Virus record (IMG/VR): IMGVR_UViG_3300031992_000005
Span: 96,001-160,000 of that record
Reading direction: 5' to 3' (one strand)
Length of the DNA: 64,000 nucleotides
Source: a virus
This document shows positions 917 through 49,451 of this stretch, piece by piece (position 1 is the stretch's first letter; each line of letters opens with the position of its first letter). The translations under genes and the position numbers were made by a program. The notes below the pieces were generated by a model. The model had not been told where the DNA came from. It worked only from the letters and a program-made list of their open reading frames with translations, and ran no database searches.

Positions 917-2455
917 TAGGAAATAGTCCTAGTATGTAGAAATACATACCGTATAATTCTATTAAAAGCGGGGAACTCCTGTTAGGCTAATAGTACTAGA
1001 GATAGTAACAATCTATTAGATAGGGACAATCCGCAGTTGATGAGATTAGTTAAAAAATTAAAATAAAAACATGTTAAGACAAGACCTGAAGAAACAATTA
1101 GAGAACAAAGACTTAGACAAAATTTTCTTACAACATCGAGATAACATAGATCCAGGAAATTATAGAGTCGGGGAAATAGGCGAAGAAGTAGTTGTCTGGA
1201 ACCCTGACACTAATGAAATAATGGACTATTTCTTTGATGATAGTAAGGAAGAATGGTTTTGTTTAAGTATGATAAATAAAAATTTAGGTAATTATTCTAT
1301 AAATAAAAAAGGGGAAGTTAAAAGCCCAAAAAAACTACTAAAAAAAGTAGAACATGAAAGTTATTTATGCTATTTTCCATCTTATATTATAAATAAGAAA
1401 AGAAAATCTGTTAATCTCTATATTCATAGAGTATTAGCGATGATATTTATTCCAAACATAGATCCAAAAAATAAGGTAGATGTAGATCATATTGATAGGA
1501 ATAGGCATAATTTTTCACTAACTAACTTAAGATGGGTAACTAAAAAAGAAAGTGCTGAAAATAAAGAACAACCGCGTTGGCACGGGGAATATTCATACAT
1601 AGCCTACAAAGATAAAGAAAAGACACAAATCGCTTTCAAGCTAAATGAAGAGGATTTCCTTAAGAAAGGCTTTAAAAAGAAGCCATTATATGGTGCTATC
1701 AAGAACAATCATAGGTCACAAGGATATTATTGGACTAGAGTAAATCTACAGTTAGCAGAGTATCTAAAAAAGTTTAATATGCAAGAACAAGATATTGATG
1801 ATACAGAATGGAAATTACATTATTCTGGAACATTCTGGGTACATCCGCTAGGTTTAGTAAAAAAAACAAAACATAGTCCAATTATTTCTCCTGGTTGTCT
1901 TGACAGGAAGCGGAAAGAACGTCATTCAGTTAAAAGATATAATGGTAAACTAGTTCATATTTTGGTGGCAGAGGTGTTTTTAAACGACAATAAACCAATA
2001 CCTAAGAAATATGAGGTGGACCATACATCTGGAGATTCTCTGGATAATAGAGCCTCGAATTTAAATATTTGCACACACATCAAGAATATGAATAACCCAA
2101 ATACTTTAAAAAAAAAATATAAAAAAATAATCAATCTTGATACTGGTGAAATCTATAATTCGATAGCAGAATGTGCAAATGTATCTAAAATACATCGTGC
2201 CACGGTGTATAGAAATATAAAAAAAGGAATAAGATTTAAATATTACAAAGAAAATTAACAAAAAACTAATCTCATCAACTTCAACGACTATCCCTTTATG
2301 GGAGTAGAATAGCAAGTCTACAATGGCTATTCGAAAGATAGAACATCTGACCAGGTTAAGCTGAAGATGAAAATATAGTCTAAGCACCGTAGAGATGCGG
2401 TGGAGAGTTTACTACTCTCGCGTTTAAAGTAGGCGATTAAACGTAAATATAACTG
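917..2455 (+). mobile_element. Group I intron, td-like, complete, carrying an HNH endonuclease ORF
   Basis: P1 is GGAU|UA..UAGUCC with a U916-G926 wobble. A P2 hairpin GTATGT/ACATAC lies at 932-949. AAAGCGGGGAAC and GGGACAATCC boxes resemble td AAACGGGGAAC and AGACAATCC. The 3' core at 2257-2380 is about 88 percent identical to 500-622. The terminal G is 2455. TAGGAA occurs at both 917-922 and 2456-2461, so splicing restores ..KGLGSLSPE.. in frame. Confidence 0.8.
1071..2258 (+). CDS. Intron-encoded HNH homing endonuclease, tandem NUMOD4-HNH modules plus C-terminal HTH
   Basis: Two HNH_3-like motifs are present: VDVDHIDRNRHNFSLTNLRWVTKKES and YEVDHTSGDSLDNRASNLNICTHIKN. Each is preceded by a NUMOD4-like W..G.Y.I...G.V segment. 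The C-terminal LDTGEIYNSIAECANVSKIHRATVYRNIKKG looks like a NUMOD1/IENR1 HTH. Confidence 0.85.
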   Translation: MLRQDLKKQLENKDLDKIFLQHRDNIDPGNYRVGEIGEEVVVWNPDTNEIMDYFFDDSKEEWFCLSMINKNLGNYSINKKGEVKSPKKLLKKVEHESYLCYFPSYIINKKRKSVNLYIHRVLAMIFIPNIDPKNKVDVDHIDRNRHNFSLTNLRWVTKKESAENKEQPRWHGEYSYIAYKDKEKTQIAFKLNEEDFLKKGFKKKPLYGAIKNNHRSQGYYWTRVNLQLAEYLKKFNMQEQDIDDTEWKLHYSGTFWVHPLGLVKKTKHSPIISPGCLDRKRKERHSVKRYNGKLVHILVAEVFLNDNKPIPKKYEVDHTSGDSLDNRASNLNICTHIKNMNNPNTLKKKYKKIINLDTGEIYNSIAECANVSKIHRATVYRNIKKGIRFKYYKEN

Positions 2456-2643
2456 TAGGAAGTCTTTCGCCTGAAACAGGTGAAGTATATGATTCCTTCT
2501 ATAACCCTTATACAAGAAGACTTGTCTTAGTAACTCCTGAGGACATTGATTATTCGATGAAACTCAACGAGGACATTGATAGTAGGAAAAAGCTATTATA
2601 TGATAAAAATATTATTAGTAATCCTTATAATTTTACAGATTAA
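2456..2643 (+). CDS. DNA topoisomerase II GyrB-like subunit, last exon
   Basis: After splicing the protein reads (KG)LGSLSPETGEVYDSFYNPYTRRLVLVTPEDI. This parallels the GyrB C-terminus GLGEMNPEQLWETTMDPE.R.L..V...DA. The stop TAA 2641-2643 overlaps the ATG of the next gene (TAATG). Confidence 0.75.
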
Positions 2644-3980
2644 TGCCTAGAAAGAAAAAAGAAATAGAAGAACCAGTATTAAGGCCAATAGAGGTACTGC
2701 CTATTGGAGAAGCTACTGAACAAGCTATTCTAAATGCAGCCTCATATATAGATAATCAAAGAGCCTTAGCCAATGTAAAGGATGGATGTAAGGTTAGCTA
2801 TAGGCGACTCATTTGGTCTGCATTGCAATTCCCTAGAGGAGTAATGCAGCCAAGTGTAGAAGTTATTAACAAAATGGCTTCTTATCATCCACATAGCCTT
2901 GACTCAATGAAACTATTATCTGCATCTTTTGTTAGGACTGGTATATTTTCAGGAACAGGTTCTTTTGGAACAACTTCTATCTTAGGAGATGTTAAGGAAC
3001 CAGCTGCTCCTAGATACACGCACATGAGGTTAAGCGATCTATATTATGACCAGATCGCACCACTCCTATCGTGCGTAGATATGGTAGAGTCTCCTGTGGG
3101 AGCTCTTGAAATAGACTACTGTCCACTGGCATTGCCACTATGTTTATCTTTAAAAGGATTAGTTAGTGGTATTGGTGTAGGTATTAGTACTGTATATCCT
3201 AACTTTTCACCAAAATCATTATACCTGGCTTATAAGAATAATAATCCACAACTACTAGAACCGAATGTAGATCTAATTATGGATAAAAATAATTCAGAAT
3301 TAGAATCCCTTTGGACAACTGGAAAAGGTAGAATAATATATTCTTATAAACTCAGTCCATATACAAATGAAGACGGAAAGCCAGGATTCTTATTTGAGGG
3401 CGATACCTGTATCTTCACGCCAAACTTGAGAAAGATAAATAAATATGTTGATCAAGGACAGGTATTTATTGAAGATATGACAGACATGAATGGCCCTAAA
3501 ATGTTCGTTGGTCTGATAAGCAATAGAGGTAATCTTAGAATAGAAGACCTAGAGAAGCTTTGTAGACAATGCTGCTTTGATGCCACTGTTTATCAATTAA
3601 ATGTAACAGATGGAACCACCTGTTATAGAATTCCTCTCTATGATTGGATAAACTATACTTATAGAAGATATATCAAACTTCTTGAGCGAGTTAATTTAGA
3701 GAAGATAGAGAAGGTTAAGTTCGAAATAAAAGTACAAGAATCTTTGCCTGAAATTGCGAATTACATTATAAACGTAAATCCAGGTGCAACAGATAAAGAA
3801 ATTTGTACAAACCTAGGAATTGAACCTGAAGTAGTATCAACAGTAATGTCTAAGCCAATAGGACAACTTAGAAAAAATAAAGATAATACTGGGAAAATAA
3901 AAGCATTAAAACAAAGACTAAAGGATCTCCTAGTATTTGATCCAGAACTTTATGTTAAAAATTTAATAGAAAAATTATGA
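2643..3980 (+). CDS. DNA topoisomerase II subunit A (GyrA/ParC/T4 gp52-like)
   Basis: RALANVKDGCKVSYRRLIWSAL matches RALPDVRDGLKPVHRR. ASYHPHSLDSM matches YHPHGD. AAPRYTHMRLS holds the catalytic Tyr in the AxRYTExRL context. The length of 445 aa is similar to T4 gp52. Confidence 0.85.
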   Translation: MPRKKKEIEEPVLRPIEVLPIGEATEQAILNAASYIDNQRALANVKDGCKVSYRRLIWSALQFPRGVMQPSVEVINKMASYHPHSLDSMKLLSASFVRTGIFSGTGSFGTTSILGDVKEPAAPRYTHMRLSDLYYDQIAPLLSCVDMVESPVGALEIDYCPLALPLCLSLKGLVSGIGVGISTVYPNFSPKSLYLAYKNNNPQLLEPNVDLIMDKNNSELESLWTTGKGRIIYSYKLSPYTNEDGKPGFLFEGDTCIFTPNLRKINKYVDQGQVFIEDMTDMNGPKMFVGLISNRGNLRIEDLEKLCRQCCFDATVYQLNVTDGTTCYRIPLYDWINYTYRRYIKLLERVNLEKIEKVKFEIKVQESLPEIANYIINVNPGATDKEICTNLGIEPEVVSTVMSKPIGQLRKNKDNTGKIKALKQRLKDLLVFDPELYVKNLIEKL

Positions 3981-4830: not shown

Positions 4831-4853
4831 ATCCTCCTAAATCCTTATATATG
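4831..4853 (+). promoter_or_regulatory. Promoter-like motif, class A (ATCCnnnTAAAnCCTTATATATG)
   Basis: ATCCTCCTAAATCCTTATATATG lies immediately after a stop codon. It is followed by an ORF-less ~95-nt unit that ends at terminator 4912-4948. Confidence 0.4.
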
Positions 4854-4911
4854 AGCATCACTGACAATAGTGGTGAATTGCAATAATTAGTTTTATATTC
4901 AAATGAATTCA

Positions 4912-4948
4912 AGAGATCCGTTCGTGAGAATAGATCTCTCTTTTTTTT
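4912..4948 (+). terminator. Intrinsic terminator, GNRA-capped family
   Basis: AGAGATC-cg-TTC-GTGA-GAA-ta-GATCTCT followed by T9. Confidence 0.7.
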
Positions 4949-4991: not shown

Positions 4992-5909
4992 ATGGATTCA
5001 AGACAAAAATTTTTAATGATAAAGCTAGCAGCTCTTGAGAAGAGAGAGTTAGAATTTATAAATCATTCAAACCGTGATTGTCCTCAATGTAAAAAAATCA
5101 AAGAGATTTTTCAGATGGATTTGAATTTGAGGGCCCAAATCTTAGACATGGAAGTATCAGAATTAGAGAAAACAGCGGATGAAATCCTGAAAAGACACAA
5201 CAATATATATCGTTGGCCTCCTAAGCGCTTTAGGGAAATTAAAAAGGAACCTGCCCCAGAGATAGAATCTTATACTGATCCTCTTGAAAAGGAAATAGTA
5301 GAACTGTTAAAAAATCGAGTTGGAATACATATTGTCGACGATGACTTATTAAAAGGTCTGATTGAAAATTCTAAATTAAATGATCATATATGTAAAAAAG
5401 TTGGAGAACCATCAGTACAAATAACTGACGCTGAATTGAGACTAGACTATCGTACCTATCAGATAGAAATGATTACTGAATTTAGTGCATGTAGTTATAA
5501 TAATGAACTGATAATTCCTATTAAAGGAATGTTTTCAGAGGATTTTAAGAAAAATCTGATAGACTACGTTAATAGGAGTGAGAAAATTGATGATGAAATC
5601 CGAGAACTTGGTTTTAGTAACAATGAAATAAAAGATAAGAGAAATATTCGAAAATTAGCGAAAGCTATGTCTTTGGATCAAATCCCAATTAACGTCCGTG
5701 TTTTGGGACTGGCAGTAATTGGTACAGAGTTGTGTTTAGATTTTGGTCCAATACATTTTAAAAACAATACGTCATTACGAATTTATTGGAATGATGAAGA
5801 TTGGGAAGACAACAATCGATATATCAAACTTAGAGACTTACCTATTAAGGTGAAAGAAATAATAGTTAACATCTTAAAACGTAAGAAGAAAAATGCCAAA
5901 CTGGTGTGA
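4992..5909 (+). CDS. Hypothetical protein
   Basis: Long ORF behind the promoter-like motif. It contains CPQC but no diagnostic domain. Confidence 0.75.
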   Translation: MDSRQKFLMIKLAALEKRELEFINHSNRDCPQCKKIKEIFQMDLNLRAQILDMEVSELEKTADEILKRHNNIYRWPPKRFREIKKEPAPEIESYTDPLEKEIVELLKNRVGIHIVDDDLLKGLIENSKLNDHICKKVGEPSVQITDAELRLDYRTYQIEMITEFSACSYNNELIIPIKGMFSEDFKKNLIDYVNRSEKIDDEIRELGFSNNEIKDKRNIRKLAKAMSLDQIPINVRVLGLAVIGTELCLDFGPIHFKNNTSLRIYWNDEDWEDNNRYIKLRDLPIKVKEIIVNILKRKKKNAKLV

Positions 5910-6501
5910 TACAACTTACATTTGTGTAGGAAATCCTATCGAGATTCGTCAATTGCATAAAGCAATAGTAACGAATATGAGAAGAAAAACTAGTCGTGTC
6001 AAGAATGATTTTGGCACTCTCTGGTTAGGCAACATTATTGATCAACTCGGCGGTAATTGGAAAGACTGGAATTGTAGAGGTTCAATTCTAAACTATTATA
6101 TAGAAAGAGCCTCTAAAGTTAATTCTAATAAACTTGTAAAACTTACTATTTACCAAACAACTGCTTGGAATGAACAGGAGGGATTTAGAAAATTTATTGA
6201 ACAGAAGTTTCCATCTATCAAAGTCTACTACTTGGAAATAGAACCAGAAGATTCAAGGTTTAGAACAAACGATGATACTGGTAATTATTTTCCAGATCGC
6301 TATCTTATAGATACTCATTGCGGAATTAAGATGTTTAATACTCTTAAAGAAGTAGCTGAATTTGCATCGAAGAAAGTAGAAAAAACAGTAGATGCTAACG
6401 TAGATGCTATAAAGAAAGCTTTAGATGATATTATATTTGATGTAGACAGTAACGAGGAAGACATCTTTTATGAATTTCATGAAATCCAAGTCATCCCCTG
6501 A
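5893..6501 (+). CDS. Hypothetical protein (N-terminus reminiscent of DUF1281/Api92-like family)
   Basis: It starts MPNWCDTTYICVG, which resembles the MPNWC.N N-termini I recall for DUF1281-type proteins. This family call is tentative. Confidence 0.65.
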   Translation: MPNWCDTTYICVGNPIEIRQLHKAIVTNMRRKTSRVKNDFGTLWLGNIIDQLGGNWKDWNCRGSILNYYIERASKVNSNKLVKLTIYQTTAWNEQEGFRKFIEQKFPSIKVYYLEIEPEDSRFRTNDDTGNYFPDRYLIDTHCGIKMFNTLKEVAEFASKKVEKTVDANVDAIKKALDDIIFDVDSNEEDIFYEFHEIQVIP

Positions 6502-6515
6502 AACCCTTATATATG
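6493..6515 (+). promoter_or_regulatory. Promoter-like motif, class A (unit 1 of array)
   Basis: ATCCCCTGAAACCCTTATATATG overlaps stop codon 6499-6501. Confidence 0.45.
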
Positions 6516-6582
6516 TACCCAGGTATATTATGCCAACCCCAATTACCTGGGTTTGCCAAATTAATCATGTTTTTTTATTAAG

Positions 6583-6614
6583 AAGACTTGCTCGTGAGAG
6601 TAGGTCTTTTTTTT
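6583..6614 (+). terminator. Intrinsic terminator, GNRA-capped family
   Basis: AAGAC-ttg-CTC-GTGA-GAG-tag-GTCTT followed by a T-run. Confidence 0.7.
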
Positions 6615-6637
6615 ATCCCCTTAAATCCTTATTAATG
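6615..6637 (+). promoter_or_regulatory. Promoter-like motif, class A (unit 2)
   Basis: ATCCCCTTAAATCCTTATTAATG directly abuts the preceding T-run. Confidence 0.45.
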
Positions 6638-6686
6638 TCTCAGAAAAAAGTTTTTTTATGTCATCTTGTATTTGATTTTTTAAATG

Positions 6687-6722
6687 AATGGCTTGCTCGT
6701 GATGAGTAGGCCATTTTTTTTT
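6687..6722 (+). terminator. Intrinsic terminator, same family
   Basis: AATGGC-ttg-CTC-GTGAT-GAG-tag-GCCATT followed by T9. Confidence 0.7.
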
Positions 6723-6745
6723 ATCCCCTTAAACCCTTATTAATG
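6723..6745 (+). promoter_or_regulatory. Promoter-like motif, class A (unit 3)
   Basis: ATCCCCTTAAACCCTTATTAATG. Confidence 0.45.
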
Positions 6746-6757
6746 AATATGTCTTTA

Positions 6758-6828
6758 GGGAGCCTCGGCAATAGTAACCCCGGTCTTAGGTTATCACTAG
6801 CCACGTGGTAACGGGTTACTGGGCTCCC
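6758..6828 (+). ncRNA. Candidate structured small RNA (Y-shaped, ~71 nt), paralog of 7060-7125
   Basis: A 7-bp closing stem GGGAGCC/GGCTCCC is followed by T7. An internal long hairpin reads GGC-aa-TAG-TAACC[9-nt loop]GGTTA-tca-CTA-GCC. A short hairpin GTAA-CGGG-TTAC follows it. The unit lies between a promoter-like motif and a T-run and has no meaningful ORF. Confidence 0.5.
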
Positions 6829-6835
6829 TTTTTTT

Positions 6836-6858
6836 ATCCCTTAAATTCCTTATAATTG
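6836..6858 (+). promoter_or_regulatory. Promoter-like motif, class A (unit 4)
   Basis: ATCCCTTAAATTCCTTATAATTG. Confidence 0.45.
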
Positions 6859-6896
6859 GATTAATACTCATATTTTGTTTTTTATTTAATACTAAA

Positions 6897-6929
6897 GGCC
6901 CACGTCTGTGAAGATATGGGTCTTTTTTT
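6897..6929 (+). terminator. Intrinsic terminator, same family
   Basis: GGCCCA-cg-TCT-GTGA-AGA-ta-TGGGTC followed by T7. Confidence 0.65.
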
Positions 6930-6952
6930 ATCCCTTTAGTTCCTTATATATG
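6930..6952 (+). promoter_or_regulatory. Promoter-like motif, class A (unit 5)
   Basis: ATCCCTTTAGTTCCTTATATATG. Confidence 0.45.
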
Positions 6953-6986
6953 AACATTTGTTAATAATATTTTAATTGTTAATGTG

Positions 6987-7017
6987 AATGGTTTGCCTGG
7001 GAAGGTAGACCATTTTT
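6987..7017 (+). terminator. Intrinsic terminator, same family
   Basis: AATGGT-ttg-CCT-GGGA-AGG-tag-ACCATT followed by T6. Confidence 0.65.
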
Positions 7018-7021
7018 TCAA

Positions 7022-7044
7022 ATCCCTTTAAACCCTTATATATG
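7022..7044 (+). promoter_or_regulatory. Promoter-like motif, class A (unit 6)
   Basis: ATCCCTTTAAACCCTTATATATG. Confidence 0.45.
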
Positions 7045-7059
7045 AGTTAGTCGTGAGAA

Positions 7060-7125
7060 GGGAGCCATTCGAGTAGTCCGGACCTTGAGACCGTCTACGG
7101 ACGGTAATGGGATTACAGGCTCCCC
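7060..7125 (+). ncRNA. Candidate structured small RNA (~66 nt), paralog of 6758-6828
   Basis: It has the same closing stem GGGAGCC/GGCTCCC followed by T10. The internal hairpin reads GTCCG-GAC[9-nt loop]GTC-ta-CGGAC. The short hairpin is GTAAT-GGG-ATTAC. It shares GGTAAyGGGwTTAC..GGCTCCC with the first copy. Confidence 0.5.
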
Positions 7126-7139
7126 ATTTTTTTTTTCAA

Positions 7140-7162
7140 ATCCCGTTAAATTCTTATATATG
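7140..7162 (+). promoter_or_regulatory. Promoter-like motif, class A (unit 7)
   Basis: ATCCCGTTAAATTCTTATATATG. Confidence 0.45.
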
Positions 7163-7195
7163 TTAAGAACATGGCATAGATTTTTTTAGCATTTA

Positions 7196-7240
7196 AAGGA
7201 AATTCGCTCGTGATGAGTAGATTTCCTTGCTTTTTTTTCT
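7196..7240 (+). terminator. Intrinsic terminator, same family
   Basis: AAGGAAAT-tcg-CTC-GTGAT-GAG-tag-ATTTCCTT, then GC and T8. Confidence 0.7.
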
Positions 7241-7241
7241 G

Positions 7242-7271
7242 TTCCCAGAGAAGGATTTCCTTATAAGTATG
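7242..7271 (+). promoter_or_regulatory. Promoter-like motif, long-spacer variant
   Basis: TTCCCAGAGAAGGATTTCCTTATAAGTATG, 23 nt upstream of ATG 7294. Confidence 0.4.
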
Positions 7272-7293
7272 AATAGTATAAATTTTAGGTTAT

Positions 7294-8343
7294 ATGTTAA
7301 CAATTGTACCAGATGTTGAACAGGTTGTGGAAGATATTTATATAGAACATATTCAAAAAGGTAAAGGAGTTGGATTGAATTATAGAATTTATCCACTTAC
7401 CCCTGATGGCGGCGATATTTATACAGATACGGGATATATACCAACTATATGTTTTAATAATAATCCATCCACAGCAAAAACATTACCGATCATAAACCTA
7501 GTTTCTTCGAGAATAGATAAATTTAAATCTGGGAATACGGGTAATGCTATGAACGTATTTAACTATTTGAAAAATGACTACAGTCCTAGTATAGGGGTTC
7601 CCGATCTAATATTGATTAGAGAATACCCAATTCCTATAGATAATCCCAACGTATGGAAGAAATATGTAATTAAAGAATTTAAAAATGATCTGAATAATCT
7701 AGATTTTAAATTCCTAAATAGAAGTTTTATTAGTTTAGACGTTTATTCACCACAGCAAAAATTAGCAATAGAAGCAGATTCTAGTAAATATCACTCTGGA
7801 ATTAATGAAAGAAAAGATTGGGTAAGGGACAGATATTTAGAAGACGTTGTTGGAATAGATACAATTCGAATTATGGACTTTATTCCTTCTTCTGAATATA
7901 ATATAAACGAATTTAAAAAGAAACTGGATAATTATAAGATCAATAAAACTAAAGACGCTTATTACCCAGAACCTAAAAAACTTGCTTCTACAGTTTTTAA
8001 TTATAATAATACCCCACTAGTAAAAGAAACTGTTAATTATATAAGAAATTTCGTATACAGGGAAAATCACTTAGAAGATAAGCCCTCTAATAACCTAGCT
8101 TATAGAATTTTATCCTATTTTATGAGTCTTGAACTTAAAATTAAATTTGTGGGAGAAAGTTTATTTACAATGGGAGATTATAAGAATAGAGCAAGAAACT
8201 TTCTAATGACAGTAAAAACTATCATAAATAAAACAATCAAAGATCCAACACTGGAATTTTTAATTTCCGATGAAGATGTCCAATATTATATTGACTGTAA
8301 TTATAAAAAAGGAATTCTGAAGCACTTAATTCCTTACAAATGA
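7294..8343 (+). CDS. Vsr/DUF559-like (restriction-endonuclease-fold) domain protein; possible free-standing homing endonuclease
   Basis: The central LDVYSPQQKLAIEADSSKYHSGINERKDWVRDRYLEDVVGIDTIRI fits the DUF559/Vsr pattern (D...l.iE.DG..H......D..R...L...G..v.R). It is paralogous to 46331-46903. Confidence 0.6.
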   Translation: MLTIVPDVEQVVEDIYIEHIQKGKGVGLNYRIYPLTPDGGDIYTDTGYIPTICFNNNPSTAKTLPIINLVSSRIDKFKSGNTGNAMNVFNYLKNDYSPSIGVPDLILIREYPIPIDNPNVWKKYVIKEFKNDLNNLDFKFLNRSFISLDVYSPQQKLAIEADSSKYHSGINERKDWVRDRYLEDVVGIDTIRIMDFIPSSEYNINEFKKKLDNYKINKTKDAYYPEPKKLASTVFNYNNTPLVKETVNYIRNFVYRENHLEDKPSNNLAYRILSYFMSLELKIKFVGESLFTMGDYKNRARNFLMTVKTIINKTIKDPTLEFLISDEDVQYYIDCNYKKGILKHLIPYK

Positions 8344-14113: not shown

Positions 14114-15472
14114 TTAATTCATTGTTACTTTTATCCAGCCTCCTGGTAATGAGTTCATCCAGGTATCATAGCCTCTAGCACCTTGCGGAACATATAATGT
14201 ACCGTTAGGACAGATGTCTTTAAATGGGTTAAAGCCACTTGGGAAAGTTGGTGCAATTGCTGGTTTTGCTACTATTTCACATAAGTTACTACAATAAACA
14301 AATGTATCTTGACCAATAGATGTAATACTACCAGGTATTATTATACGAGATAAACCTGCACATCCAAGAAATACACCATGATCAATAGTAGTCAGTGAAC
14401 TATATTCAGGTAAATTAATTTCAATTAGCCTGTAACAATGGGAAAATGCATAAGAACCAATACTACTTAGATTATCCCCTAAGACAACTTTTTTCAAACC
14501 ACCACAACCATCGAACTTATCACCGGTGATACTAGTGACACCTTTTAAGACTACTGTTTCCAATGTATTAATTGCTCTGAAAAATCCATATTCAATACTT
14601 GTCACGGAATCCCCTAAGATTAATGTCTCTAGAGTTCTATGATTACCAAAAGTTTCTGTACTGAAATTAACCTGTGCATCATAATTAATATACTTAATAT
14701 TTGCACAATTCTTAAACGCATTACTTCCAATACTAGTAACTGAATGTGGAACTGTTATGTTAGCTAGGTTTGTACATCCGTCAAATGCATTATCTCCAAT
14801 ACTAGCTACTCCATCCTCTATTACTACATCAGTTAAGCTAGTACAACCTTGAAAGGTGGAGCTATTAATATTAGTTAACTTACCAGGGATTTCTATACTA
14901 ATTAAGCTAGTGCAGCCATAAAATGCACTACTACCTAAGGTAGTTAGATTCTTAGGCAACCTCACATTAACTAAGCTATTACAATTATATAAAGCCTGAT
15001 CACCAATACTAGTAACGGTATTAGGTATTACCACCTTGGTTAAATTATTACATCCATATAATGCAAATTTACCTATAGAAGTTACACCATCAGGTATAAT
15101 TAATTCCACCAATGCACCACTAAAGAAAATTGGAGCTGTCCCGCCCAAAGTGCCACTTGGATTAGTCAATTCAAACCTAATTGTATGTATTCCTGTAGTA
15201 TTAAAGGTATAGGTTACTACTATAGGATTATCCCCCGTTTGAAGTACTCCATCAATTTCAGTAGCTTTAATCACATCAGGTCCAGTATAACCAGATGTTA
15301 TAACAGTAGGTGAAGTAGTACTAGTGACATTATACTTACCTATCATCCATGCACTAGGCTTATTATAATGTACCTCATTTTCTGCTTCACAGTATACTAC
15401 ATTAGGTCCTTGGATGCTATCTTTTTGTTCTTCATACTCGGTATGAGTATTAAATTTCTTTAAATATTTCAT
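14114..15472 (-). CDS. BspA-type LRR protein, putative tail fibre, class II N-terminal module
   Basis: LRR_5-type repeats are present (VTSIGxxAFxxCxxL). The start is set at MKYLKKFNTHTEYEEQKDSIQGPNVVYCE because it aligns with the N-terminus of ORF 55986 (KYFNLFDSHNDYISAKNNLKKPNISYCE). The ORF-track start 15571 would run into the upstream gene's end. Confidence 0.75.
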   Translation of the reverse strand: MKYLKKFNTHTEYEEQKDSIQGPNVVYCEAENEVHYNKPSAWMIGKYNVTSTTSPTVITSGYTGPDVIKATEIDGVLQTGDNPIVVTYTFNTTGIHTIRFELTNPSGTLGGTAPIFFSGALVELIIPDGVTSIGKFALYGCNNLTKVVIPNTVTSIGDQALYNCNSLVNVRLPKNLTTLGSSAFYGCTSLISIEIPGKLTNINSSTFQGCTSLTDVVIEDGVASIGDNAFDGCTNLANITVPHSVTSIGSNAFKNCANIKYINYDAQVNFSTETFGNHRTLETLILGDSVTSIEYGFFRAINTLETVVLKGVTSITGDKFDGCGGLKKVVLGDNLSSIGSYAFSHCYRLIEINLPEYSSLTTIDHGVFLGCAGLSRIIIPGSITSIGQDTFVYCSNLCEIVAKPAIAPTFPSGFNPFKDICPNGTLYVPQGARGYDTWMNSLPGGWIKVTMN

Positions 15473-24839: not shown

Positions 24840-25376
24840 TTAGAAGAAATCCACTATTATATAAGAAACAGAATTATATACAGGCCTTCTATACAACAAT
24901 TTATTCCAGATCCAAGGAATAGGTAATAAACAATACCAGAAGTGCTTTTTATCTATTTCTGGAAAATAGTTATGTGATGTAATATCAGACGTTGTAATAA
25001 AATTCCACTTAGGCTTTTTTATTGCAATAAAACCTACCTTACAACCTTCTGGTATCCAACCTGCAACTAGGTTAATAAAATCCTCAGGATAAGAATGCCA
25101 ATCTCCCTCATAAGTAAAGTTAAGAATACACTCATGACCCTTAAAGAGATTCATTGCTTCTTTAACTGTCATCTTACTTCTCCAAAGACCATGAGCAAAT
25201 ACCCACGTATCTCCCTTTTCTTTTACTCTAAGATCAAACCAGGTAATACCACTATTAAGCTGTTCTGACAAAGTTTTTCTTTGACACTTAGCAAAGATCT
25301 TACCTAGTCGACTTAAAAACCCAGAACTTTTCTCACCTGTCGCACTATTATGCGTTCCGATTTTCAATGAATTCAT
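24840..25376 (-). CDS. PI-PLC X-domain-like phosphodiesterase
   Basis: IGTHNSATG...QRKTLSEQLNSGITWFDLRV...FAHGLW fits the PLC-X pattern (GTHdS ... Q..i..QL..G.R.fDlRv ... HG). Confidence 0.5.
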   Translation of the reverse strand: MNSLKIGTHNSATGEKSSGFLSRLGKIFAKCQRKTLSEQLNSGITWFDLRVKEKGDTWVFAHGLWRSKMTVKEAMNLFKGHECILNFTYEGDWHSYPEDFINLVAGWIPEGCKVGFIAIKKPKWNFITTSDITSHNYFPEIDKKHFWYCLLPIPWIWNKLLYRRPVYNSVSYIIVDFF

Positions 25377-26727
25377 TATATTTAATTTTAATAAAATTTT
25401 CCAAAGCCTCAGGAGTATTTTCTAACACTCCATCTAAAACTGCCTCTTTCATAGCATTTTTTATTAGACCGACCATTCTTCCTTTTCCAATACCTAGGAT
25501 TTCCATTATCTCATTTCCTCCAAGGCATGGTTGAAAAAGCCGAACGAGATCTTTTTCTTGCAGGTCACTAATCATCTTTCTTAACTTATCATAGTGATCC
25601 TGTAACCTCATTCTTTTCGAGGGTCTTCTCGAAGTTACGTCAGATTCACAAAGGAGTAGTAGGTCTTCTAAATCTTCTCCAGCATCATAAATAAGCCTTC
25701 TAACAGCACTATCAGTAATAACTGAAGTACTAATCATAGCTGGCCTCATGTGCATATCAACCAGCTTTTGAACATAGTCTTTCTTACCTATCCTAAGCCT
25801 ATCAAGAACTCCTGGTATTAAGTTAGCCCCAATATGTTCATGATTATAGAAGGTCCACTCTCCTGTAGTAGGATCAAATCTCTGAGTAGAAGCTTTTCCA
25901 ATATCATGAAGAAGAGCCGCTATTCTAAGGTAAGGATTAGTTGTTTTCCCCACAATATTTCTCAAAACCTGTAAAGAATGCTTATAATTATCCTTATGTC
26001 CTTCAAGATCATTTCCTGCTTTAAGGGCAGTTAACTCAGGGAGAATCATTTCAAGGAGTTCAGCTGCATCTAGGAGTTCAATTCCTGCAACTGGATCGGG
26101 AGAAGCCATGATTTTTAGAAATTCCGTGCCAATCCTATCAGGGGTTAGAATTTTTATTCTATCCTTCAAAACCTTCATTGCATCAATTAGTCTCGAATCT
26201 ATGAGAAAACCCAATTTACACGTGAATCTAATAGCTCTGAACATGCGCAATGGATCATCCTTGAAAGTAATCATGGGATCCGTTGGTGTCATTATAATCT
26301 TACTTTTTAAATACTTTCGTCCATCAAACGGATCAACATACTCCCCAAAATGCTTCTCATTAAGACACATGGCAATAGTATTTATAGTAAAATCCCTTCT
26401 CATCTGATCATCATATAATGTACCTGGTACTACAGAAGGTTTTCTACTATCTGGGCTATAGGATTCTTTCCTAGCCCCAACAAATTCTACTTCTAGGTTA
26501 TTATACTTTACTGCGGCAGTTCCATAACGTTCATATCTGAGAACCTTACTCTGATGAATCTCCTTGGCAAATTCATCCGCCATCTTTACACCATCACCGA
26601 CGACAACAATATCAATGTCGTCATTTTCTATACCTAGAAGCTTATCTCTTACGTATCCACCTATAACATAACATGGTAGATTAATTTTGTCTGCTACTTT
26701 TCCAATTAATTTTAATAAGTCTTCCAT
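25348..26727 (-). CDS. cca: tRNA nucleotidyltransferase (CCA-adding enzyme) with HD domain
   Basis: YVIGGYVRDKLLG..DDIDIVVVGDG holds the Pol-beta nucleotidyltransferase GG/DxD. RRDFTINTIAM and DPLRMFRAIRF are head/neck motifs. LLHDIGK is the HD domain. Confidence 0.85.
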   Translation of the reverse strand: MEDLLKLIGKVADKINLPCYVIGGYVRDKLLGIENDDIDIVVVGDGVKMADEFAKEIHQSKVLRYERYGTAAVKYNNLEVEFVGARKESYSPDSRKPSVVPGTLYDDQMRRDFTINTIAMCLNEKHFGEYVDPFDGRKYLKSKIIMTPTDPMITFKDDPLRMFRAIRFTCKLGFLIDSRLIDAMKVLKDRIKILTPDRIGTEFLKIMASPDPVAGIELLDAAELLEMILPELTALKAGNDLEGHKDNYKHSLQVLRNIVGKTTNPYLRIAALLHDIGKASTQRFDPTTGEWTFYNHEHIGANLIPGVLDRLRIGKKDYVQKLVDMHMRPAMISTSVITDSAVRRLIYDAGEDLEDLLLLCESDVTSRRPSKRMRLQDHYDKLRKMISDLQEKDLVRLFQPCLGGNEIMEILGIGKGRMVGLIKNAMKEAVLDGVLENTPEALENFIKIKYNEFIENRNA

Positions 26728-47637: not shown

Positions 47638-48246
47638 ATGATAACGTTAGCAGATCGAGGTGCCAGTAATATAACAGTAATGACAACGGGGGAACCATTA
47701 CCTCCAGATGGAACTGACGATTACATCAAGATTGCTCTCTTAGGATCAACTGATATGATCGATGGGGGCGAGTTAGACTGGTATCAGAAATTTTGTACAG
47801 GCTTGGCTATTATAGCAGGCCGAGAATCCAGTAGAGGAGTAAATATATTTAAGAGTCTTAATTACTTAATCTTTAATTGTAAGACTCCACCAGTACCAGA
47901 CGGTACTATGTCTGTTAATAATCCAGCTTTTGTTAACCACCTTAGCTGGTGTTGTGACGTAGCTACTGCAGCAGATGGTATATTTGTTAATTTCTTGAAG
48001 AATAGTCAAAGTGTAATGCCAGTGTATTGGTTTTCGCTTTTTGCACAATCAGGGAAGCTAGTATGTAGAGTTCCCCTAGAGCAAGATTATATCTTTTCGG
48101 GACTAGTAAATACTACGTGCCAACGCTTTAATATTCCATGTTTCCCAGGGAAAATGGGAAATGTAATGTCAGTCATTCAGGCATTTTTCAACTTTGTGCC
48201 TAAAATGCAAATCCTTAGTAATCCAGCAATACAGTTACCTGAATGA
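47638..48246 (+). CDS. Hypothetical protein (weak resemblance to nucleoside 2-deoxyribosyltransferase-like fold)
   Basis: IKIALLGS...LDWYQKF and W..DVATAADGIFVNF are vaguely like the Nuc_deoxyri_tr2 pattern. The functional call has low confidence. Confidence 0.6.
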   Translation: MITLADRGASNITVMTTGEPLPPDGTDDYIKIALLGSTDMIDGGELDWYQKFCTGLAIIAGRESSRGVNIFKSLNYLIFNCKTPPVPDGTMSVNNPAFVNHLSWCCDVATAADGIFVNFLKNSQSVMPVYWFSLFAQSGKLVCRVPLEQDYIFSGLVNTTCQRFNIPCFPGKMGNVMSVIQAFFNFVPKMQILSNPAIQLPE

Positions 48247-49451
48247 GAAGCCTTATCATATTGAAGGGCTTAGTTAAATCAGATAAACAGAATTGGGTGA
48301 AAAGGGAAGGCCTTATGAACTTTTTCTTAGACATTGATTATATTAAGAAACTATTCTATAGGCCAGATTATAAGGGGAGCAAAGAATTCCTAACGAGATC
48401 TTTTGATGATGTAGTTTATAAAGTATTTCTTCAGGCACTTTGCTCCCGTTTATCAACGGGGACCTTAGTGGTCGTTGATATTGATAATGATTCTGTCTCT
48501 TCGATAGAAGACTTAGCGTTTATATTTGGATATACTGTTTTTTATCATGTTGAATCAACACCATACGATTACGTTGGAAAGAATAAAAAATATTGTAATT
48601 TTCAATATATAGTACCGACTAAAGATACATTGAAGAGGGAAGTATTGGATTTTAATAATATTGATTATACAGGAAAAAACCTAATTAATAATTATGCAGA
48701 TATAGAGGATTATTGGAAACCTTTGACACGAACAACAATAATTGATAAGAATGATACGGTTCTACATATATCAGACCTACATTCACATTGGAATTTACTT
48801 AACACTAAAGTACCTAAATTTTCCAAATATCCTCTAGTCGTGTTTGCCGGAGATTACATAGATGGACCAGAAAAAGGTGGTAGCAGAAGATTAATAGAAC
48901 AAATCCTTGGGTATAAAGGAACGAATGCTATTTTCCTGGAGGGAAATCATGAACTTCGACTTAGAAAATACTTGGGTTATACCTATATCAAAGGAAAAGG
49001 AAAGAAAATAGTATCTGAAGTTTTATTAAATGAATTATCAGAAGAATTTCTTCAAAAAACGGCAGATGAATTCTCAGACTTAAAAATGCTAGATTCATAT
49101 GAAATGTTGTTGGGGATGAATAATATATTCAGAGAATCTTTTATTTATGAAAGAGGAAAAGATACATATATTTGTACTCATGCGGGTCTTAGATGGATAG
49201 ATCAGATAAGCCCAAAATTTATAGGAAATGTAATATATTCAAATAAGAATACCGAGAGAGTAGATCTTGCTTTCTCTGAGAGATATAATCAAGATAATAT
49301 ATGGTCAATTCATGGACATTGTAAGTATAATGTCATGGAGTTCTGCCGATTCCCTGGAGTCATTAACTTTGATACCGAGGATGAAACTAAGGTAAACTAT
49401 TTTATAAATTATCCGAATAAAAAAATTAAAGTATGTGTAGTAAAAGATTAG
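48243..49451 (+). CDS. Two-domain protein: P-loop-kinase-like N-domain (degenerate Walker A) plus metallophosphoesterase C-domain; Pnkp-like end-healing enzyme?
   Basis: The C-domain has HISDLHSHW, VFAGDYIDGPEKGG, LEGNHE, THAG and IHGHC. The N-domain has LIILKGLVKSDKQ in place of GxxGxGKS/T, and TLVVVDIDN like the kinase Walker B/lid region. Confidence 0.6.
   Translation: MRSLIILKGLVKSDKQNWVKREGLMNFFLDIDYIKKLFYRPDYKGSKEFLTRSFDDVVYKVFLQALCSRLSTGTLVVVDIDNDSVSSIEDLAFIFGYTVFYHVESTPYDYVGKNKKYCNFQYIVPTKDTLKREVLDFNNIDYTGKNLINNYADIEDYWKPLTRTTIIDKNDTVLHISDLHSHWNLLNTKVPKFSKYPLVVFAGDYIDGPEKGGSRRLIEQILGYKGTNAIFLEGNHELRLRKYLGYTYIKGKGKKIVSEVLLNELSEEFLQKTADEFSDLKMLDSYEMLLGMNNIFRESFIYERGKDTYICTHAGLRWIDQISPKFIGNVIYSNKNTERVDLAFSERYNQDNIWSIHGHCKYNVMEFCRFPGVINFDTEDETKVNYFINYPNKKIKVCVVKD

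Follow-up and report, generated by a model that had tools for sequence, protein, structure and literature searches.

Does a pair of short, matching elements in a phage genome serve only to end transcription, or are the elements structured RNAs in their own right? Both lie in a 64,000-nucleotide (nt) stretch from an uncultured jumbo phage (IMG/VR record IMGVR_UViG_3300031992_000005, positions 96,001 to 160,000), here called the window; the counts and scans concerning the two elements refer to these 64 kb, and the wider scans to the ∼76 kb of the genome that were examined. The elements, which we call u3 and u6, occupy places three and six in a compact array, and each opens with GGGAGCC and closes with GGCTCCC ahead of a T-run. 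On balance, and with modest confidence, we favour the reading that u3 and u6 are paralogous, independently transcribed, terminator-closed and stable non-coding RNAs of this phage, which would act in trans and which belong to an array of duplicating cassettes.

Anatomy of the two units

The pair GGGAGCC...GGCTCCC, with its halves 40–70 nt apart, occurs exactly twice in the window, in both cases on the plus strand, at 6758–6828 (u3) and 7060–7124 (u6), and in 0 of 100 shuffled sequences. The T-run that follows consists of seven T in u3 and of CA plus ten T in u6, the encoded 3′ ends being GGCUCCC-UUUUUUU and GGCUCCC-CA-U10, respectively. An earlier sequence-only reading of this stretch had described two such units as members three and six of an array; that observation is real and non-random, and the numbering is borne out by seven units that are each headed by a 23-nt motif, ATCCCYTTAAAYYCTTATWWATG. 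Nine matches to the motif are present in the window, where 0.04 would be expected, and seven of them fall within the array. Every unit closes with a hairpin and a T-run, and in all seven the next copy of the motif abuts the preceding T-run. Units 1b, 2, 4, 5 and 7 have AU-rich leaders that end in GNRA-capped (GUGA/GGGA) hairpins. As two protein genes also have the motif 24–27 nt ahead of their start codons, we read it as a putative promoter; transcription would then start near 6749–6751 in u3 and near 7049–7050 in u6, and the structured cores begin 12–15 nt after the motif. The features are as follows (P1 to P3 denote the helices; L073 and L090 are relatives described below).

6493–7260, plus strand: array of seven units, each with promoter-like motif, short RNA and hairpin plus T-run, ∼770 bp
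6723–6745, plus strand: u3 promoter-like 23-nt motif ATCCCCTTAAACCCTTATTAATG, abutting the T-run of unit 2; 0 mismatches to the consensus, conserved in L073
6746–6757, plus strand: u3 short 5′ leader, taken from the sequence; replaced or diverged in L073
6758–6828, plus strand: u3 structured core, 71 nt, from RNAfold; orthologs in L073 and L090
6758–6765/6821–6828: u3 P1; 5′ bulge at 6766–6772
6773–6780/6813–6820: u3 P2, strands AGUAACCC/GGGUUACU; 5′ loop at 6781–6789
6790–6797/6805–6812: u3 P3, 8 bp; apical loop of 7 nt at 6798–6804
6829–6835, plus strand: u3 U-tract, 7 T, which with P1 makes an intrinsic-terminator-like end
7022–7044, plus strand: u6 promoter-like 23-nt motif ATCCCTTTAAACCCTTATATATG; 0 mismatches
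7045–7059, plus strand: u6 short 5′ leader
7060–7124, plus strand: u6 structured core, 65 nt, from RNAfold
7060–7066/7118–7124: u6 P1; 5′ bulge at 7067–7072
7073–7079/7110–7116: u6 P2, strands GUAGUCC/GGAUUAC; internal loop of 7080–7089 (5′ side) and 7106–7109 (3′ side)
7090–7095/7100–7105: u6 P3, 6 bp; c(UACG)g tetraloop cap at 7096–7099
7127–7136, plus strand: u6 U-tract, 10 T after the CA spacer

Predicted secondary structure

Folding with RNAfold yields one architecture common to both units, a nested rod in which P1 (7–8 bp) is followed by a bulge of 6–7 nt on the 5′ strand, by P2, by a 9–10 nt loop on the 5′ strand facing 0 or 4 nt on the opposite strand, and by P3. The minimum free energy (MFE) is −31.8 kcal/mol for u3 (z −3.05 against shuffles) and −28.9 kcal/mol for the 65-nt core of u6, or −29.7 kcal/mol (z −3.2) when 7060–7125 is folded. 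Overall, the fold is placed at z −3.0 to −4.0 relative to shuffles on the plus strand, versus just −1.3 to −2.2 on the minus strand. Pair probabilities within the helices amount to 0.94–1.0 in u3, except for the terminal U-G pair of P1 (0.68), and to 0.90–1.0 in u6. The u3 ortholog of L073 adopts the same fold, with an MFE of −34.4 kcal/mol and helix pair probabilities of at least 0.9.

A distinct fold had been drawn in the sequence-only reading, namely a Y-shaped three-way junction composed of the closing stem, a long bulged hairpin with a 9-nt loop and a short hairpin just before the closing strand. The segments assigned to the short hairpin are indeed present, GGTAACGGGTTAC at 6807–6819 and GGTAATGGGATTAC at 7103–7116, and the Y can be drawn because GUAAC/GGUUA recurs in u3 and provides alternative partners. 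However, the long and short hairpins of the Y have an ensemble pair probability of ∼0 in u3 and in u6, the most favourable structure to include the short hairpin lies 9.0 kcal/mol (u3) or 6.4 kcal/mol (u6) above the MFE, and in u3 the short hairpin with all five pairs is left with a 2-nt loop. On energy and ensemble probability the three-way junction is rejected, and such a lack of thermodynamic support for a junction is an outcome that the sequence-only reading had itself named as refuting its model. Three helices do exist, but they are stacked on one another, the choice between Y and rod being decided by thermodynamics and not by comparison of sequences. The accompanying claim, that the architecture is conserved while the internal helices differ in sequence, holds for the shared layout, which is the rod, and for P3, which has no sequence similarity between the units; P1 is identical and P2 similar.

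Readings of parts of the fold as a K-turn, a T-loop or a pseudoknot between bulge and loop were checked by eye and rejected, as none is conserved between u3 and u6.

Paralogy and conservation

That the two units are paralogs, as the sequence-only reading proposed, is supported by the identity of P1, by the similarity of P2, which between the paralogs carries one double compensating change (C-G to U-A) and one single one, and by the 77% identity of the segments that precede them (terminator of unit 2 with promoter motif of u3, against terminator of unit 5 with promoter motif of u6). The latter is consistent with a segmental duplication. P3 forms a perfect helix in each unit. A covariance model built from three u3-type sequences placed u6 second-best in a search space of 128 kb.

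Several assemblies of the same phage carry identical copies of u3 and u6. In L090, a 99% relative, u3 differs at a single unpaired position, and in L073, whose flanking protein is 93% identical, the u3 ortholog has five substitutions, two of them unpaired and three in stems. Pairing is retained in each of the stem changes (A-U to G-U, U-G to C-G and U-A to U-G), and since the new G-U pairs correspond to C-A mismatches on the opposite strand, it is the plus-strand RNA that is under constraint. Between the two phages the u3 core has changed at 5 of 71 positions (7%) and the four-fold degenerate sites in the flanking gene at 13 of 63 (21%; binomial P∼0.002), so that the core evolves more slowly than synonymous positions. 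The leader and the linkers between hairpins are scrambled in L073 or carry indels, and the promoter motifs are kept.

The relatives also differ in the make-up of the array. From the comparison of L073 3255–3559 with window 6501–6900 it is seen that L073 lacks unit 2, unit 1 being followed directly by the u3 ortholog, which is a clean indel of one whole unit, bounded by promoter motifs on both sides. Contig L004 (JGI 3300024342, 1481–1800) follows window 6400–6581 to the end of hairpin 1a and then diverges into a minus-strand module with NUDIX, PARG-like and metallophosphatase genes; either the array has been rearranged in that strain or the contig is chimeric as assembled. In several other assemblies a break falls within the array.

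Comparison with intrinsic terminators

For a comparison with the terminators of the same genome, the sequence upstream of every T-run of at least six in the window was folded, which resulted in 16 sites with hairpin and T-run. The ordinary ones, those of the array included, measure 17–28 nt with −7 to −17 kcal/mol, whereas u3 and u6 measure 65–71 nt with −29 to −32 kcal/mol, corresponding to ∼3 times the length and ∼2 times the stability. The two units do share the form of an intrinsic terminator, in that a G+C-rich closing stem (P1, with 6 of 7 G-C pairs) leads within 0–2 nt to the U-tract. They are not simple hairpins of the size typical of the genome, and what stands in the place of a loop is a two-helix domain of 50–57 nt.

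The main rival explanation, which we regard as less likely, would see in u3 and u6 no more than intrinsic terminators of a compound type, or insulators. The long interrupted hairpin would then serve to block transcription with high efficiency where promoters lie close together, and the released RNA would be a by-product devoid of a separate function. The form of P1 and its U-tract agrees with this explanation, as does the placement of a promoter motif immediately after the hairpin and T-run of each unit, and no trans target was found in the window. The array resembles the PeSL elements of T4-like phages, where a stem-loop terminator is directly followed by a conserved promoter, in many copies and in a variable region, and where strains differ by indels at cassette boundaries (PMC2839356, PMC4122927). 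The seven units present the same succession of terminator and conserved motif in many copies (the promoter being predicted), and units may have been gained or lost at cassette boundaries, in L073 and, unless it is a chimera, in L004, possibly by recombination at the cassettes. In T4-like phages the cassettes lie next to protein-coding modules; the modules of the present array would be non-coding RNAs of 40–90 nt, and the motif sequences are unrelated. Against the terminator explanation, hairpins of 17–28 nt suffice elsewhere in the genome and in the array itself, so that a structure of 65–71 nt and ∼−30 kcal/mol would be unnecessary for termination. Although the numbers are small, the unpaired parts of u3 are as conserved in L073 as its stems (2 of 24 positions changed versus 3 of 47, the neutral level being ∼21%), the three-helix layout has been kept in both paralogs despite the loss of all sequence similarity in P3, and a promoter placed 12–15 nt ahead of the terminator structure would make essentially no product except an RNA of the u3/u6 type. 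The terminator explanation keeps substantial weight, because we infer expression and found no partner. Taken together, paralogy, the shared layout, size and stability, and conservation above that of synonymous sites support the proposal of a structured RNA over that of a plain terminator, and u3 and u6 are probably more than terminators.

Proposed expression and mode of action

In our preferred reading, that of paralogous RNAs acting in trans, each unit would give a primary transcript of ∼85–90 nt, made of a leader of 7–11 nt, the core of 65–71 nt and a U-tail. Its start would be set by the conserved 23-nt motif and its end by its own P1 (GGGAGCC/GGCUCCC) and U-tract, so that the terminator would be part of the body of the RNA. 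In the body, three helices nested on a common axis would make up a rigid rod, with a 3′ strand that is paired almost throughout and a 5′ strand that exposes two single-stranded bulges (6–7 nt and 9–10 nt) besides the apical loop. From the stability of the rod we infer a long-lived RNA, and the exposed bulges and loops may form the contact surface for a partner, for which a protein (by decoy or sequestration) is favoured over antisense pairing to an mRNA. The array itself may have evolved by duplication and by gain and loss of units, in the manner of the PeSL cassettes.

A more specific version of such a role, which we consider improbable, would make u3 and u6 a new class of phage "rod" decoy RNAs, compact, hyper-stable, closed by their terminator and made early from dedicated promoters, that tie up a host factor or a defence protein able to sense nucleic acids, or that, once trimmed at the 3′ end, serve as minihelix substrates occupying tRNA-end-processing, CCA-adding or repair enzymes; they would be the counterpart, in a virus of bacteria, of decoys of the adenovirus VA RNA type.

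A number of results weigh against the preferred reading. The motif is taken as a putative promoter from its position and conservation, and enrichment was seen neither for a sigma-70 consensus nor for the canonical Bacteroides promoter; the TAnnWWTG end of the motif resembles TAnnTTTG only in part, and we therefore make no claim about the host. Neither a complementary stretch of at least 12 nt in the window nor a partner or linked RNA-binding gene was found for u3 and u6. The score of u6 in a model made of u3 sequences only is weak (14.5 bits, E∼0.4) and derives from P1 and P2 alone. Covariation among the four distinct sequences is not significant, as 138 of 500 shuffles reach the observed score, in a test that is almost powerless with four sequences and no homolog beyond two close relatives. 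In addition, all the stem substitutions seen are transitions that would keep the pairings of the Y as well, and conservation of the hairpin is equally expected of a mere terminator.

Small non-coding RNA candidates bounded by a promoter and an early terminator have been described by ONT-cappable-seq in phiKZ, PAK_P3 and other virulent or jumbo phages (PMC10914365). They resemble u3 and u6 in being short promoter-to-terminator transcripts, found in close relatives only, with no open reading frame (ORF) and no assigned function (PMC10914365), and differ in that they arise in 5′ untranslated regions by premature termination, whereas the units described here are free-standing and tandemly arrayed, with a terminator stem that encloses the whole RNA body; there is no relationship in sequence or through Rfam. 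The kind of RNA is thus known, and the u3/u6 family is new. If expressed, the two units would belong to a small-RNA family that had not been described before, in a lineage of uncultured jumbo phages, and the array would be a compact set of ∼eight independently promoted small-RNA genes, which is rarely documented and may offer a handle on RNA-based host takeover by huge phages. The practical value is modest, given the narrow range of the family, the lack of an assignable function and the lack of support for a link to tRNA or CCA addition.

Searches for relatives

The sequence-only reading had proposed a comparison with Rfam, and this produced no known family, whether the whole window was scanned at the gathering threshold or 6400–7350 at E up to 10; in the latter scan only sub-threshold chance matches to generic terminator-bearing small RNAs appeared. 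A blastn search against 50,697 phage records gave no match. Pattern scans of IMG/VR (P1...P1′ plus T-run; promoter motif) gave only unrelated or chance matches, that of JGI metagenomes nine matches, all unrelated and of high GC, and that of GTDB genomes for promoter plus P1 three chance matches. The covariance model of u3-type sequences detected no further copy in the relatives or in the window together with its flanks, of which 9 kb on the upstream and ∼3 kb on the downstream side were covered.

A similar result was obtained by following the neighbouring proteins. The 202-amino-acid (aa) protein encoded upstream has many relatives, yet a u3 homolog accompanies only the 93% identical one (L073); its relatives of 48–60% identity are followed by other sequences without a match to the covariance model. 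The 349-aa downstream protein has L090 (99%) as its only relative, and relatives of the M42 peptidase (∼50% identity) have no RNA of the u3/u6 type. The family is so far confined to a single phage species and a close relative of it, which suggests a lineage-specific element. As for Y RNA/YrlA, there was no Rfam match and no TROVE match among the 30 window proteins scanned with Pfam, out of a genome of 0.2–1 Mb.

Downstream (3′) of the 60%-identical homologs of the 202-aa gene in L074–L076, the corresponding intergenic region contains AACYGAACTCTGCA three times in tandem, as well as long hairpins with perfect pairing (e.g. TTGAGGGAGAACGTC...GACGTTCTCCCTCA). These features are unrelated to u3 and u6, and the region is possibly an analogous, non-homologous small-RNA region.

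Comparison with tRNA-like and other phage RNAs

The sequence-only reading had also suggested that the 7-bp closing stem might act as an acceptor stem for the CCA-adding enzyme of the phage, whose gene is indeed present:

25348–26727, minus strand: class II CCA-adding enzyme with HD domain

As an explanation of u3 and u6, a Y-shaped tRNA-like RNA offered to this enzyme, and perhaps to RNase P, is very unlikely. What agrees with it, besides the gene, is a closing stem that begins with G, the stacking of P1 and P2 into a helix of 14–16 bp whose 3′ strand is uninterrupted, in loose likeness to an acceptor/T minihelix, and the short 5′ leader ahead of P1. ARAGORN detected no tRNA or tmRNA in the window and its flanks (∼76 kb); an absence of tRNA genes might invite the idea, but in a genome of 0.2–1 Mb the tRNAs may sit outside the examined stretch. 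No match to the tRNA clan of Rfam was seen even at E up to 10 over 6400–7350, and the Y fold has, as described above, a probability of ∼0. Instead of a 7-bp acceptor and a 5-bp T stem with a 7-nt T-loop, the units have a P1 of 7–8 bp and a next helix of 7–8 bp that opens into the 9–10 nt asymmetric loop and the third helix, with no UUCRA-type hairpin loop. In contrast to tRNAs and minihelices, they have no cloverleaf, T-loop, anticodon arm or encoded CCA; discriminator and CCA are not encoded in u3, and the 3′ end would be the U-tail of a terminator. The enzyme itself is encoded 18 kb away on the opposite strand, and CCA-adding enzymes are common tRNA-repair genes of jumbo phages (PMC7824862), so that the presence of the gene was correctly noted and its link to u3 and u6 is without support.

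Two further genes, together with that of the CCA-adding enzyme, make up a candidate RNA-repair set, namely a metallophosphoesterase protein matching an "RNA ligase" PHROG (48243–49451, plus strand) and a PNK3P-type polynucleotide kinase/phosphatase (L102 1360–1866).

Phage antisense RNAs with 5′ and 3′ ends joined in an acceptor-like closing stem are represented by C4 of P1/P7 and CI of P4, of ∼70–80 nt. An immunity RNA of this type, of ∼77 nt, with a closing stem cut by RNase P and loops that pair with a phage leader, would agree with the size, the paired ends and the phage origin of u3 and u6. We hold it to be highly doubtful, because there is no Rfam match at the gathering threshold and no C4-type family (RF01695, which we take to be the Rfam model of C4) in the list at E up to 10 over 6400–7350, because the predicted fold is a rod and not two hairpins side by side, because no target complementary over at least 12 nt was found in the window, and because the neighbourhood contains no lysogeny or immunity genes.

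Least probable of all is a feature at the DNA level, either a palindromic binding or cruciform site or a miniature inverted-repeat element with GGGAGCC/GGCTCCC termini, since the perfect 7-bp terminal inverted repeat in two copies is set against G-U pairs of u3 and L073 that become C-A mismatches on the complement, a minus strand that folds much worse, no target-site duplication flanking u3 and u6, and two copies at the same spot within a promoter/terminator unit with no more in ∼76 kb.

Genomic context and further observations

The phage from which the window derives is represented by contigs of 0.2–1 Mb, and the window encodes GroEL, SbcCD, topoisomerase II, an NAD-type ligase, BspA-type LRR proteins and the CCA-adding enzyme. 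There is no close cultured phage, the top topoisomerase identity being 28%.

Outside the main array there is one further unit of the type with AU-rich leader and GNRA-capped hairpin:

4831–4945: further unit with AU-rich leader and GNRA-capped hairpin

Considering this locus and 6493–7260 together, there are ∼eight free-standing units of motif, short AU-rich RNA, GNRA-capped hairpin and T-run, and three units share a near-identical hairpin apex, GCUCGUGA(U)GAGUAG. They point to a second putative paralogous small-RNA family, which outnumbers the u3/u6 pair and may be of greater interest.

With respect to coding capacity, a small-ORF reading of the units was rejected, as the 22-codon ORF that begins at the ATG of the motif in u3 is truncated and not kept in L073, and the corresponding ORF of u6 has 2 codons. 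A listed ORF of 79 aa (6470–6709, plus strand) crosses the promoter motifs and terminators of units 1–2 and almost certainly does not represent a gene.

The 202-aa gene immediately upstream of the array (5893–6501) has 52%-identical homologs on contigs L091–L093, and many of its homologs belong to elements in which BT4734-like_N, DUF3871, resolvase and dynamin-like genes also occur, a hint of a mobile gene pool associated with Bacteroidota.

A gene for an HNH endonuclease of 395 aa is found at 1071–2258 (plus strand), L102 7151–8758 being noted alongside. It lies ∼2.5 kb downstream of a gene with a Toprim domain (a faint Pfam match, with two small ORFs in between) and ∼400 nt upstream of the gene for the topoisomerase II A subunit (2643–3980), and it looks like a homing endonuclease inside a split topoisomerase locus. 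Beyond the end of the window (L096/L097 10600–14964) lies the anaerobic ribonucleotide reductase gene nrdD, which carries an intein with a LAGLIDADG domain and is fragmented in L096; the non-coding stretch at ∼14160–14800 has a G+C-rich appearance and is possibly structured, with no Rfam match.

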